A program made the translations under genes and the position numbers. This document shows, piece after piece, positions 2,409 to 30,760 of a stretch of 31,075 bases of DNA. Within the stretch, counting starts at the first letter, position 1. Every line of letters starts with the position of its first letter. The notes beneath the pieces were generated by a model. It had not been told where the DNA came from. It saw only the letters and a list, made by a program, of their open reading frames with translations, and made no database searches. The stretch is from Eledone cirrhosa (Eukaryota), in assembly GCA_964016885.1 (NCBI GenBank), contig CAXHJY010000265.1, positions 1 to 31,075 on the forward strand. Reading direction: 5' to 3'.

Positions 2409-2530
2409 AACGGAAGAAATGTGGTAAGGAACCAGGTGGACCATAACGCACCAAAGTACTCAATACTTAGGGTAGTAGAGTGGGTAATAGGAACGAGTAG
2501 GACCCCGACGGCTGAACTCAAGCCGTTTCG
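2409..2530 (-). mobile_element. (TA)n-flanked short element, family E (truncated, no inversion)
   Basis: Highly similar to 4184-4305; (TA)n on both sides. Confidence 0.7.
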
Positions 2531-2572
2531 TATATATATATATATATATATATATATAAGTATGTATATATC

Positions 2573-2925
2573 TACTTCAATGAAAAGAGAATGCCGGATT
2601 CCAGTATATTCCTTTAATGTTGCATACATACACAATACTATGGCCGACTTAAGTCATCAGATCATGATACAAGACATTCGGTGACGTCATCAGGTCTAAT
2701 TAACATAGAAGAAAAGATATGCAACATTAAATGAATATATTGGACTCCGGTCTTCTTTTTTCATTGAAGTATTTAACTCCGTTCCTGCACCAATCATGAG
2801 ATACTATACGTCTATGATAGATAAATCACATAACGCCAAGTACTTTTGCTTATTGCATCATGATCTGCTAATTAATATGACTAGATCTACACATTAGTTA
2901 AACCATCCAACATAAACGGAATATA
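2573..2925 (+). mobile_element. Diverged PLE-like inverted-repeat element related to family A
   Basis: IR 2573-2626 / 2718-2771; tail ATTTAACTCCGTTCCTGCACCA resembles ATTTAACTCCGTACTAGCACCA at 16832; degenerate minus-strand CTGATGA core near 2687-2693. Confidence 0.55.
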
Positions 2926-3222
2926 TGAGAATGAAGAACTCAGAGCTGTACGGGAGCCTCCCAAAAGTCAGCTCGAGAGTAACACAGAGGAGACTGAAGT
3001 TAGCTGGACATACTCACCGACATCCAGAGTTGGCACTGCACTCAGTGCTCCTGTGGGAGCCCCTGCATCGACACACTAGAAGAGGCAGACCGAGGTTGAC
3101 ATATATGTTGATGCCCCTAAAGACAAACACTGGTCTCTTGGAGATGCAGGACATGGCAGCGATGATGAGGGGCAGAGACCACTGGAGAGAACTCATCCAT
3201 GGATCTCGGGAATTTTACTCGC
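2925..3222 (+). pseudogene. 3' end of an RTE-clade LINE ORF (post-RT C-terminal region)
   Basis: Translation ELYGSLPKVSSRVTQRRLKLAGH..RHPE...LLWEP...RRGRPRLTY...DHWR matches the typical RTE C-terminal pattern; frameshifted; ends at (TA)n. Confidence 0.75.
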
Positions 3223-3840
3223 CTTATATATATATATATATATATATATATATACATATGCACGCGCGCGCGTGTGCATGAATCTATGAATGTATACTTG
3301 TATGTATGCATCGAGGAGGCCAAAATCGATTGCTACCTGTTCTTCCTCTGGATTACTTTCACATGTGTTGTGATGAAGAGGGAACTGTGATATGGATAAC
3401 AATTCAACCAAAATACTGCTCTCTTCTAGGCATGTAATTCACACCTATGTAGCCCTTTGGTACCGAAGGATACGTGACGAAGTACTTACAGCCAAAGCTC
3501 AAATATTCTCAATCACACATGTGTATATTGACGTTTGTAAAACGATTTACTGAGCTTTTTCACCCAGACATTATAATCACCCCACCCCTGTTATTTTGTC
3601 TCAAATAACATTCCTCAATTTCGATCAATGTCCGAGATTTGTGCAAACTAGATATGACATATCTTTCTACCAGAACTCCAGCCGGCAGGTAGTAACAGTA
3701 ATAGAAAGACTAATGAAAACACCGTTTCCTTGATCCGATATGCTGATCCATTCCTTTCCATTTTCCCAAGGATACCAATCATAATCATGGAAATCTTTTA
3801 TAGTTTCATTCTCATCTAGTATGCTTTACAGAAATATTAT

Positions 3841-3990
3841 ATCGACTCAGTACTTGATTGGTACTTTATTTTATCGACCTCGGAAGGATGAAAAGCAAAG
3901 TTAATTACACCCTTATATGAACTAAGAACGTGCCGAAGTCAATTCTGGCGTTTTATCTGACACTGTGAAAATTCTTTCAATTCATCACCT
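3841..3990 (-). mobile_element. Degenerate Deu/Nin-type SINE
   Basis: GGTACTTTATTTTATCGACCTCGGAAGGATGAAAAGCAAAG is the reverse complement of the SINE core. Confidence 0.7.
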
Positions 3991-4183
3991 GAGTAACTTG
4001 AATCAAAGTTGGTTCATTAAAAATAACACCAGTTAGAGGGAGGGTGATGATATGTGTTGTCGTAAGCACGTATGTTTACTATAAATATTTATAGTTTGTG
4101 TTTATTGACTAAGTTCTCTATATCGACATATAGATACGCACGCACGCGCACACACACACACACATATATATATATATATACAT

Positions 4184-4356
4184 AACGAAGGAAATGTGGT
4201 AAGGAACCAGATGGACCATAACGCACCAGAGTACTCAATACTTAGGGTAGTAGCGTGGGTAATAGGAAAACGTATGACTCCGACGGCAGAGCTCAAACCG
4301 TTTCGAAGCCGTCGAAACGGCTTGAGCTCTGCCGTCGGGGTCATACTTTTTCCTAT
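4184..4356 (-). mobile_element. (TA)n-flanked tail-plus-hairpin element, family E
   Basis: Unique tail 4184-4261, then IR 4262-4306 / 4312-4356; TA repeats on both sides; second copy at 2409. Confidence 0.7.
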
Positions 4357-4445
4357 ATATATATATAACACAAGCTTCAAGTTTAAAGAAATATCTAACT
4401 GTTAGACACCTGTTGATGTACACGAATACATCCCCCTCATATATA

Positions 4446-4854
4446 CAGTTGTCCCCCGGTATTCGCGGGGGTTATGTACCTAGAGCACCCACGAAGTTTG
4501 AAAAACCGCGAATATCAAACGTGGTCTATAAAAATTCATATAAACCTCAAAATATAACGTAAAATATAATAAAAAAAAGAGAAGGAGCGTCATATGCGAA
4601 GGGGCGTCCAGTAGACTGGCAAATATGGTATAGTATTATTAATAATTTAGCGTTAAAAAAATATACATTGCCATGAAAAAAGCCATTAAAAAATCGTGGA
4701 AGATATTTACGACTCCATGAATATGCGGTGGTTTCCACGAATAATTACAACAATTATAAGGAAAATTCCACGAATAATTATAACAATTATAAGGAAAATT
4801 CCGCAAATAACTGGGACCGCGAATGCCGGAACTGCGAATGTTGGCGGTACACTA
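4446..4854. mobile_element. Tigger/pogo-like (Tc1/mariner superfamily) MITE
   Basis: TA|CAGTTGTCCCCCGGTATTCGCG left end; degenerate right TIR GCGAATGTTGGCGGTACACTA|TA; subterminal CCGCGAAT repeats; internal 33-bp tandem duplication at 4733-4798. Confidence 0.65.
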
Positions 4855-28157: not shown

Positions 28158-28909
28158 CACACACACACACACACACACACACACACACACACACACACAC
28201 ACACACACACACACACACACACACACACACATATATATATATATATGTATTATATTAATAGTAATGATAATATTTATGCGAGTAAATAATAGGTTTTACT
28301 CATTTACTTGGTGTATTTTAGCTCAATCTATGGTAGGATCAAGCAGAGCCAAGCAGAGCCAATATATGATTATACTGTACTTACAAATCAAAATTAAAAG
28401 TTTAAGACATTAATTACTAGCAATTTTTTCTCCCCGTAGGAATATACCTTCAACAACAAAACAGTAAATTATTTTATTCAACAATTTGCTATTAGCACAA
28501 ACCACAGGAATCATCAGAGTTTATTAAAGCATAAACGATTAAAATAATATTAAGACAAATTACTCAAGAACAAAAGATCATGTATATCACTTATCGAATT
28601 AAATAGCAGGTCAACTTAAAAGGGTATCAGATGTATTACAACACTTAAATGTTATTTGAAAGAGTAGTAACTTTCCGATTATGAATTGAAAGTTGTATAT
28701 CAAAGCAATATTCATGGCTTGTAGAAGAAATGCATCGAATTGAACAGAGTTAAAATTAAAACGTATATTTTAATTATAGTAAATGATGCATGCACAGAAC
28801 TGTACTTTCTTTTCAGATAGAACAACTTTCCTCTCAGGGGCTCAAATTTGGCTGTGGCGACCAGAAACTGAACAATATTCAGGTTTTACTTCAGCGTAAC
28901 CCTTTTCTC

Positions 28910-29060
28910 GTCGTATTGGTATTAGAAAGTCGAATAATCTACTTTGCAGTATTTGTTCCGGCTCTCTGCGCTTTGAGTTTAATACTCATCGAAGTCAAAT
29001 TTGCCTCTCATTGTTTCGAGGTCGATTAAAACGTACCGTTTTAGTATTGGGGTCGATTCT
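28910..29060 (+). mobile_element. Degenerate Deu/Nin-type SINE
   Basis: TTTGAGTTTAATAC..AATTTGCCTCTCAT..TTCGAGGTCGATTAAAA..GGGGTCGATT. Confidence 0.65.
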
Positions 29061-29311
29061 TCCTATATATCTCTTCCTCACCCTCTATCTCCCTTTCTGG
29101 AAAAAAAACGACTGTCCTTAGACCAGAAGAGAAGATGAACTCGCTCAAGTTTAAAATGCCTACGTCACACTGCATATTCATACAGCGCCTCTACGACTAC
29201 ATCGGAAGTTACGGGTTCAGACATACATACAACTTTTTTCCAGGCAGTTGTTCGGTACTCGGAGTAAACTTCTAAATAAACGTTAAGCATTTGGAGCACC
29301 CTTCTTCTAGA

Positions 29312-29594
29312 CCACACCTTTTCAATGTGGGTACGTGAACCCCTGGGGTCACGCGTGCAATGGAGAATTTATTTTTATATTCTAGCCTTTGGATCATTAT
29401 TTGCTGATTAATGCAATCTTTCCTGCTAAAGATCAATAAAATTTTTTTTTATACATCTTGTCTTTCGTAGCGAAAATCGCCAATAATTGGTTTAACCAAA
29501 AATGTGCGAGGTCCCTTAGGCAAAACATTAGCACGAATTTCTTTTACCAAATGGGGGAGGGGATTCATTGTTTAAAAGGTTTTTGAAGGCATGT
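29312..29594. mobile_element. Possible degenerate hAT-like MITE
   Basis: CACACCTTTTCAA..GAACCCCTGGGGTC left end and GGGGATTCATTG..AAAAGGTTTTTGAAGGCATG right end resemble Charlie-type termini; TSD not seen. Confidence 0.3.
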
Positions 29595-29779
29595 TTTAAC
29601 TTGTTCTGTCGTCTATAGTCTCCCTACTATGTTCAGATCGGTACTACAAACTGTAATTATCATTTATGATAGAAGACGAAGTCATATCTGGTCACTTCAC
29701 ACACAATATCGTTATACATAGACATTTTCTCTATTTGGAGGCTTTTTATCCGATCTGTTCATCTTTTACATGCGAAACC

Positions 29780-30022
29780 TCTACCATTATTACCATATCA
29801 ACCATCACCACTACCAGCAACATTACCAAGATGGTGGTGGTGGAGATGATGATGATGATGCTATTGTGATCGCCAGTGCTCTCGTCATCAACCACTACCA
29901 ACTAGATTATTGCGATTATCCTTCTTCGCCATAACCACCACTACCAACATCTTCATCATTACTATCGTCACCACCCCCATTTACATTATCATCATCATCA
30001 TCATGATCATCATCATTACTAT
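29780..30022. repeat. Degenerate (CAT/CAC)n trinucleotide region
   Basis: Direct reading. Confidence 0.8.
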
Positions 30023-30304
30023 CTTAGATAACTGAAAGCATCTGTAGATTCGTACTCGAGTATCAATGATAGTAGTGTTTATATTAGTCGAAGCAAAGCT
30101 CACTATTTCTTGTTTGTATGATAAAAGTACATAACGTTGCTGTTGTTATTGGTGGTGGCAATGATGGAGGTTGTTGTTGTTGTGATATTGTTGTTGATGT
30201 TGCTGTTATTTTGGTTCTCGCTCTTGCCAATCTAAAATCTTTTTATTGTTTGTAAATCTTTCATGTAGTATTTTTCATTCACTCATCTTTGCCAACCCCT
30301 GATT

Positions 30305-30605
30305 CATGTTACTGTACCTCCGTCGGTTCCCACGACCACTATTCCACTTGTTTGATTAACAGAACAGCCTGCTAGTGAAATTAACATGCAGAAGACTGAG
30401 TATTTCACAGACACGTGTATCATTAACGCCTTCTCAGAGAGATTCAGCATGTCAGAGTATGTAACACAGTTGGCCCTTTGAAATGCAGGTACAAAATTTT
30501 CCCAGCTGAGTGGACTGGAGTAACGTGAAATAAAGTGTCTTGCTCAACGACACAACGTACCGTTCGGTCAGAGAATCGAAATTACGCCTTCATGAATCAC
30601 GAGGC
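30305..30605 (-). mobile_element. tRNA-derived SINE with CORE-like domain
   Basis: CCAGCTGAGTGGACTGGAGTAACGTGAAATAAAGTGTCTTGCTCAA is the reverse complement of the domain at 18540 and 20265. Confidence 0.8.
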
Positions 30606-30622
30606 AAATTGTTTATTTTGTA

Positions 30623-30760
30623 TGTAAAAGGTAAACAGAAATAGCAAAAATAACAAAACAAACTGCACAGTACATGGAAGGAATATATTAGTTTAACGCT
30701 TGAAAATAGCAAGAAGAGAGTCCTAACGTTTAGTCCTTCATCAGAAGAAAGAATGAGAAA
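30623..30760 (-). mobile_element. Family I copy with deletion in HHR stem II
   Basis: Minus strand TTCTT-CTGATGAAGGACT[del]AAACGTTAGGA; remainder aligns with 28021-28157. Confidence 0.65.

Follow-up and report, generated by a model that had tools for sequence, protein, structure and literature searches.

Hammerhead ribozymes (HHRs) are abundant in a 31,075-nt contig of Eledone cirrhosa (CAXHJY010000265.1 of assembly GCA_964016885.1), which was analysed at its full length and is referred to here as the window. We found that these motifs are real, and that they are mostly the tail ends of known Penelope-type elements together with non-coding hitch-hikers in TA repeats. The islands that carry them are very probably the 3' ends, or pseudo-long terminal repeats (pLTRs), of several Penelope-like elements (PLEs) with a C-terminal endonuclease (EN), accompanied by two retrozyme-like units, tandem and non-coding, which apparently rely on that machinery too and insert, like the PLEs, into (TA)n. 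The window belongs to a genome of 2,995,841,428 bases in 1,796 contigs and is made up of (TA)n runs, short repeats and many copies of one short interspersed element (SINE), which we take to be of the octopus type; no host gene is evident among the 66 open reading frames (ORFs) listed for it. For comparison we used a blind sample of 59 10-kb blocks (590 kb), whose positions were preset on 23 large contigs and are not strictly length-proportional. (TA)n accounts for 12% of the window bases, compared to 4.7% in the blind sample.

The window was scanned for type I HHRs with a descriptor comprising CUGANGA, stem II, GAAA, stem III, UH and a stem I of at least 4 bp. This recovered 13 folds in which the CUGANGA/GAAA/UH core is closed by stems I-III, whereas 100 local dinucleotide shuffles with the microsatellites kept averaged 0.14 folds, with at most 1 in any shuffle and none reaching 13. 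Three stricter settings left 10, 9 and 8 folds against 0.10, 0.02 and 0.01 in shuffles. Self-cleavage at UH is predicted from these folds. Inverted arms and tandem units are counted more than once, and the 13 folds come from only nine insertions of six families (A, B, C, D, E and H), which were delineated by masked self-BLAST and clustering along with the variant families F, G and I. Stem III is short and palindromic in most window HHRs and in 20 of the 47 HHRs of the blind sample. An Rfam scan of the window gave 143 matches with an E value of at most 1; none was a hammerhead, and nearly all were microRNA (miRNA)-type hairpins. The islands survive simple-repeat masking, and it was Rfam that missed them here.

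A sequence-only reading made beforehand had proposed a high hammerhead content, which the shuffled controls bear out. It had named 12 main positions between 9111 and 27471, and the core was present at all 12, although at 25147 stem I of the family has two mismatches and the scan passed only through a weaker register. Its five variant sites fared unevenly: 28034 is near-intact and 5735 forms a complete fold, whereas 5401 lacks the 5' strand of stem I, 30723 is deleted and the site at ~2690 has no GAAA. The count of at least seven families holds once variant families are included, but the families are not all unrelated, because 9555, 22166, 22374 and 25147 share flanks and cluster together as one superfamily B.

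In support of a PLE origin, which the earlier reading had proposed, reverse transcriptase (RT) or GIY-YIG ORFs were found directly upstream of the same HHR end for four families (B, D, F and G). An RT followed by a C-terminal GIY-YIG domain precedes the HHR pLTR in B2, D and G, while for F only the EN end was seen. The B2 pair in the window matched, at 99-100% identity, the pLTR of a full-length Hydra-type PLE (loci L182-L184), and linkage of B2 to the ORF was found in all three of these long loci. L184 holds a partial tandem pLTR-ORF-pLTR unit with a period of ~4.2 kb, in L183 the pLTR adjoins a 583-aa RT-plus-EN frame, and inverted 5'-truncated copies are present in L182 and L183; the first Met of the ORF lies downstream of the tail. 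Family G lies 870-940 nt after a related ORF in L056, L066 (twice), L113 and L149. Translations of B2 and G have a CxCX5C linker, no CCHH, and CxxC and CxH near the EN end; DKT and RWR (RWK with one residue changed) were seen for B2 only, the G sequence not reaching the N-terminus. By these predicted motifs, B2 and G belong to the Hydra clade.

Family D lies 150-280 nt after a GIY-YIG end in seven loci (L018, L050, L054, L059, L072, L079 and L112). Its translated ORF comprises an RT, a CX4CX2C linker conforming to CX2-5CxxC, and a CCHH-type GIY-YIG domain, and on these motifs D is predicted to be of the Neptune/Nematis type, two clades that the motifs do not tell apart. The RT fragments of B2 and D showed no BLASTP similarity. 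A sister family of D, with ~50-60% amino acid identity and its own HHR variant with the same stem III sequence, is present in L061 and L122. Decayed 3' fragments of long interspersed element (LINE) reverse transcriptases, which we presume to be RTE-like, lie at 20936-21300 and 2916-3220, and the family D end stands just after the first. Family F follows a C-terminal GIY-YIG ORF of a third type in 5 of 20 GIY-YIG loci, picked by match length from the 150 hits listed. In the window the 5' strand of its stem I is replaced by a (TG)n run; genomic F copies are intact. The other 15 of these 20 loci (within L154-L173) had no same-sense HHR fold within ~1.3 kb downstream and no window family following; several PLE families here may be without a detectable HHR, or interrupted. 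Naiad elements do not match what was found, given that they have an N-terminal EN and no canonical HHR, whereas here the EN is C-terminal and is followed by a stop codon and the HHR.

Preference of most islands for (TA)n, also part of the earlier reading, proved strong. In the blind sample, TA abutted the 3' end in 64 of 87 family matches and the 5' end in 8 of 87, compared to 5 and 6 of 98 for a SINE control and 2.8% of random positions. A (TA)5 run was present within 200 nt downstream of 38 of the 47 blind HHRs against 11% expected (20% within the same loci), and of 12 of the 13 window folds against 26% expected, with the run being internal to the unit at the four A sites. Two recurrent 3' ends, 50-140 nt apart and usually on opposite arms of an inverted pair, were found in A, B, C, G and J, which thus carry the optional tail at one end that is typical of EN-bearing PLEs; E has one main end. 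Microhomology of 3-5 nt between element and TA was present at eight of nine recurrent ends (null 1.1; 0 of 20,000 draws) and at 69 of 82 scored junctions. Families B, F and J fell outside this test as their references were truncated; each of the two B ends has 3 nt of microhomology.

The only clearly non-coding tandem units are A and E, while C is probably also non-coding. Both consist of non-coding tandem units with one type I HHR each, as in non-LTR retrozymes (LTR, long terminal repeat). Elsewhere in the genome, A forms arrays of up to ~30 units of ~420 bp, some of which are without the core. The E hammerhead folds alone as a complete ribozyme, and E copies are 99-100% identical among the 40 matches listed. 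As circular monomers, both fold better than shuffles (z = -5.9 for A, partly through an internal TA-rich hairpin, and -3.9 for E). Insertions of E are direct partial tandems with one main 3' end and variable 5' ends. Since the hammerhead traversed by these copies is one expected to cleave as a monomer, the E template was presumably uncleaved or circular. TA also abuts the variable 5' end in all 11 mappable E loci, which favours insertion into pre-existing TA runs. Some arrays share private variants (L044, including its inverted arm, L047, and E arrays on C4 and C5), and others show higher-order repeats. Among the latter are A arrays with 6-unit and 3-unit repeats at L051/L052 (C11, 3.29-3.30 Mb) and L035, where a retrozyme insertion is turning into a satellite. 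The longest stop-free frame of E, 102 codons, is antisense to the HHR; in the window, this 91-102 codon frame occupies 22645-22920 on the plus strand, and it is kept in tandem units. Directly at the 5' end of the window E copy lies a 2.1-kb (TA)n/(TAAA) array (23015-25112), whose strand bias switches near 23550.

We propose that the GIY-YIG domain would nick (TA)n on both strands, and that the freed TA 3' ends would base-pair to stretches of alternating AU (3-5 nt) that lie at one or two fixed positions inside the element, ~40-290 nt downstream of the HHR. The template RNA would be uncleaved or circular, and the RT would copy back through the ribozyme, usually stopping early. Priming of both strands at two sites would generate an inverted pair with an extra tail of 50-140 nt on one arm, and each insertion would split a TA run into two new targets. 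Because copying would start just downstream of the HHR, even very short copies would keep it, and because split TA runs would offer new targets, HHRs would accumulate where TA is abundant, as in this contig; the majority of HHRs in the genome would therefore be passengers. This scheme agrees with the tail signature already published and with the finding, reported for a lizard element, that insertion can dispense with HHR cleavage (PMC11167929, in its accessible text).

A number of observations weigh against this interpretation. TA abutted the blind ends in only 7 of 15 matches for D, 2 of 5 for F, 2 of 4 for H and 1 of 3 for the family of the island at 5861-6030; in these families several copies continue into the tail, and the end of H is often (CA)n. 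Among the loci examined, families A, C, E, H, I and J had no linked ORF, and the D fragments scored below the curated Pfam cut-offs (21.9 versus 22.6 bits for GIY-YIG, 23.1 versus 29.6 for RVT_1). A first microhomology run, invalid because its references were contaminated with TA, gave no signal on summed length (p = 0.59). In addition, the anole Poseidon element primes in vitro at a site without homology to the cut DNA, according to the available part of PMC11167929.

The TA runs could alternatively be a product of the elements, reiterated on the AU site by a telomerase-like RT. The far greater frequency of TA at 3' than at 5' ends would be expected on this account, as would the AU microhomology at the ends and the fact that both termini of inverted pairs are 3' ends. 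Direct E insertions, however, have TA at the variable 5' end as well, and different families lie side by side at the same runs, so that we regard the TA runs as targets and consider their synthesis by the elements quite unlikely. It is likewise unlikely that A and E are ordinary satellites amplified at the DNA level with a captured HHR. Long A arrays with higher-order repeats, and a divergence within A arrays that is not below that between them (5.6% versus 3.7%; the E means are inflated by one mis-anchored false unit), are what a satellite would show, but copies on many chromosomes, fixed 3' ends at TA with variable 5' ends, the inverted arms with a tail in A and the folding of the circular monomers all argue for mobilisation through RNA.

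Finally, many islands are near-perfect inverted repeats flanked by TA and could be read as miniature inverted-repeat transposable elements (MITEs) with TA target duplications, in which HHR cores would be incidental. The arms are asymmetric, however, their fold-back points vary, they continue into RT and GIY-YIG ORFs, and complete folds occur at a rate far above chance, which makes this reading very improbable. It is refuted for B, D, F and G by the ORF linkage, and it remains only for a 684-bp palindrome at 10299-10982, which is 99.4% perfect, centred on a short TA run, and has no HHR and no other copy among the loci examined; this palindrome may represent a MITE, the outcome of a fold-back insertion or an artefact of the assembly. 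None of the families resolves into DNA transposons, and the interpretation of the sequence-only reading is supported as essentially right. Its picture of a guild of PLE derivatives stands with respect to PLE origin and needs amending in that the majority of islands represent ends of coding PLEs, either 5'-truncated or inverted, and not separate non-autonomous derivatives.

On the genome scale, the blind sample contained 47 HHR folds in 590 kb, compared to 3-5 in shuffles, and bootstrap extrapolation gives 2.2x10^5 HHRs (95% range 1.3-3.2x10^5). An exact degenerate B pattern had 46,417 genome matches (15.5 per Mb) and its reversed control none, in agreement with the 10 B-type HHRs (17 per Mb) of the blind sample. 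The largest published count found is 126,247 for the axolotl; a coral has over 6,000 and a mussel ~5,000 (accessible text of PMC7229834), and literature searches for octopus or cephalopod hammerheads found no survey. The density in the window, called extreme by the earlier reading, is 4.2 per 10 kb, about five times the genome mean of 0.80 and in the upper tail; it is not unique, since 4 of the 59 blind blocks hold four or more HHRs, while 36 hold none. Blocks with more TA arrays tend to have higher HHR counts (rho 0.45, p = 3e-4). As Schistosoma mansoni has tens of thousands of HHRs in a much smaller genome, the present genome need not be a density record.

Family G departs from the canonical core: of 21 copies found, 20 read CA at core positions 3-4, and the remaining one is truncated there. 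Genome-wide, 11,704 exact 51-nt matches have A at position 4, whereas 152 35-nt matches have another base, and among 100 of these listed the other bases are roughly evenly spread over T, G and C. Such a spread is what mutations arising afterwards would give, which places the fixation of the change in the source element. In contigs from four sequencing runs aligned to a G locus, no other base was listed at 5% or more at this position; the run from a second organism yielded a single near-identical contig, which may be a trace, and these contigs are therefore not taken as evidence across species. A scan for U4A cores gave five folds against none in three shuffles, while the other variants (U4C, U4G, A6C, A6G, A6U, G5A, A9G, C3U, G8A and U3-A8) showed no excess over shuffles in the 590 kb, with the exception of one AT-rich satellite and one single C3U fold. 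One copy of an unrelated type I fold with core CAGACGA, a 7-bp stem I and a palindromic stem III was seen in L109 (minus strand, ~9822 nt from the end). Many G copies (window 5735-5745; L020, L028, L120 and L134) are truncated or fold back exactly at the core start, where A4 creates a short palindrome, possibly a snap-back hot spot. The available part of PMC3088659 names U4C, U3-A8, A6C and other natural HHR variants, U4A not being among them; our literature searches on U4A hammerheads found nothing relevant, but were not exhaustive, and a prior report is possible.

A broader reading, which we put forward tentatively and regard as possible rather than probable, is that the genome holds ~2x10^5 intact HHRs, above any published count found, and that these owe their spread to several Hydra- and Neptune-type PLEs that are young at the same time; these PLEs would use (TA)n as a primer by pairing over 3-5 nt at fixed sites within the element, and their enzymes would also mobilise two circular-RNA retrozymes. 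In this broader reading, G, with more than 11,000 copies, A for U4, three stems kept and one further unrelated U4-to-A fold (L109), would be either an active core variant missed by standard descriptors or a natural case of PLE hammerheads persisting without cleaving.

Table 1. Hammerhead-bearing and related insertions in the window, ordered by position (a dot marks features with no strand assigned).
Feature	Positions	Strand	Remarks
Family J arm	2407..2530	-	ends at (TA)n; only GAAA half-core seen
Family I fold-back insertion	2560..2780	-	two CUGAUGA, GAAA missing; repeat family at 73-85% identity
Family J inverted pair	4181..4356	.	two fixed ends
Family F pLTR end	5402..5549	+	HHR 5403-5436 without 5' strand of stem I
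Family G inverted pair	5579..5790	.	complete HHR fold 5735-5785(+), core CAGAAGA; pLTR of Hydra-type PLE
Inverted pair	5861..6030	.	3' half of another HHR family; an intact relative is present in L055
Family A insertion	8722-9351	.	type I HHR 9111..9153(+), palindromic stem III
Superfamily B insertion	9384..9658	+	inverted tail and forward arm; HHR 9555-9615
Family A 3' fragment	9777..9923	.	no HHR
Family C inverted pair	16483..16969	.	HHRs 16531-16588(-), 16720-16777(+); no ORF linked
Superfamily B tail-only insertion	17946..18029	.	no HHR
Family C tail and short arm	18058..18262	.	no HHR
Family D pLTR end with 5' fold-back	21379..21655	+	HHR 21469-21513
Family B2 inverted pair	22033..22479	.	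HHRs 22166-22231(-), 22374-22439(+)
Family E	22536..23014	-	part of 630-bp tandem unit; HHR 22786-22867, 8-bp stem III
Superfamily B copy	25110..25337	-	HHR ~25147-25211, stem I degraded
Family A retrozyme-like insertion	26284..27717	.	inverted arm and ~420-bp tandem units; (TA)n both sides
Family A HHRs in 26284..27717	26552-26594, 27051-27093, 27471-27513	-, +, +	
Family G 3' fragments	27778..27909	.	no core
Family H	28010..28155	+	minimal HHR 28034-28069; (CA)n/(TA)n at its end; without a linked ORF
Family H copy	30625..30760	-	deleted core, no GAAA (variant 30723)

Among the families without a linked ORF, C has up to ~2 kb of non-coding upstream sequence. A candidate link between C and a GIY-YIG ORF in L128 was rejected, as 39 other matches stop short of C and all eight other copies of the ORF have a different 3' end; the junction was seen in 1 of 16 C loci and in none of the eight other ORF copies. 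For family I, one relative (L186) gives a candidate HHR fold. At 6047-6077, 7093-7120 and 12740-12770 we observed the shared ends of longer elements, starting at TA runs with CTAG and a short GC-rich hairpin, which we presume to be Helentron/DINE-like.

The role of the HHR in PLEs is an open question, as cleavage is poor and was dispensable in one in vitro system. The present families offer natural contrasts: a high-copy G with a fixed core change, a very young E with a strong stem III, and a young full-length B2 with base-mapped priming sites. They also give direct structural support for retrozymes as PLE passengers. For annotation, an estimated 2x10^5 HHR ends would be missed by Rfam models, none having been detected in the window, and these ends resemble MITEs or miRNA hairpins. 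In addition, they tie PLE activity to the heavy (TA)n load of the genome.

The following comparisons are confined to the accessible text of the sources cited. Families B2 and G share with Hydra-clade PLEs, including Hydra-1_Obim of Octopus bimaculoides (Craig et al. 2021, PMC8557442), the C-terminal GIY-YIG domain, CxCX5C, the absence of CCHH, CxxC/CxH, the HHR and insertion into (TA)n, and B2 (RWR) also matches the DKT and RWK-like motif of the clade. That source describes one octopus Hydra family of 2,507 bp without a pLTR and Hydra elements generally below 3 kb, whereas we found at least two Hydra-type families with pLTRs, a ~4.2-kb unit, and 46,417 (B-type) and 11,704 (G) HHR ends; this comparison is with the published description. 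It also lists cephalopod Naiads with a (TA)n preference. Family D shares its RT, CX4CX2C linker, CCHH-type GIY-YIG, HHR in the pLTR and microsatellite bias with Neptune/Nematis PLEs (PMC8557442). For Octopus vulgaris, 31 recently active PLE families have been listed, and the word 'ribozyme' has no occurrence in the available part of that paper (PMC13282606).

Poseidon PAc of Anolis (Frangieh et al. 2024, PMC11167929) resembles the present elements in having two internal RT start sites downstream of the HHR, an optional tail and AT-rich targets, and its insertion in vitro needs no HHR cleavage. The tails found here are longer (50-140 versus 30-40 nt), and the ends have 3-5 nt of TA microhomology, unlike the homology-free priming of PAc. 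With minimal PLE hammerheads (Cervera and de la Pena 2014, PMC4209133), our families share the short palindromic stem III, which was described for PLE hammerheads acting as dimers, many sequence families per genome, and a predominance of single truncated copies or opposite-strand pairs. That work gives 2,000-9,000 HHRs per genome and names U3-A8 as a core variant, not U4-to-A as in G.

Like non-LTR retrozymes (Cervera and de la Pena 2020, PMC7229834; Li et al. 2026, bioRxiv 10.64898/2026.07.22.740005), A and E are tandem and non-coding, carry a single type I HHR per unit, have a low GC content and a well-folded monomer, and coexist with PLEs, from which animal retrozymes have been argued to derive (bioRxiv 10.64898/2026.07.22.740005). 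E differs in its length, 630 bp being beyond the quoted 150-450 bp, and in its 8-bp stem III; A and E, described here from DNA, differ in their fixed 3' ends at (TA)n, and A in its PLE pattern of inverted arm plus tail. Literature searches did not find HHRs on the scale seen here, retrozymes with PLE-type fixed ends or the fixed U4-to-A core of G. Taken together, PLE hammerheads, retrozymes and a (TA)n-targeting octopus Hydra element are already known, and the present analysis adds to them the scale, two retrozyme-like families whose ends are fixed at (TA)n, microhomology at the junctions of several families and a fixed U4-to-A core.

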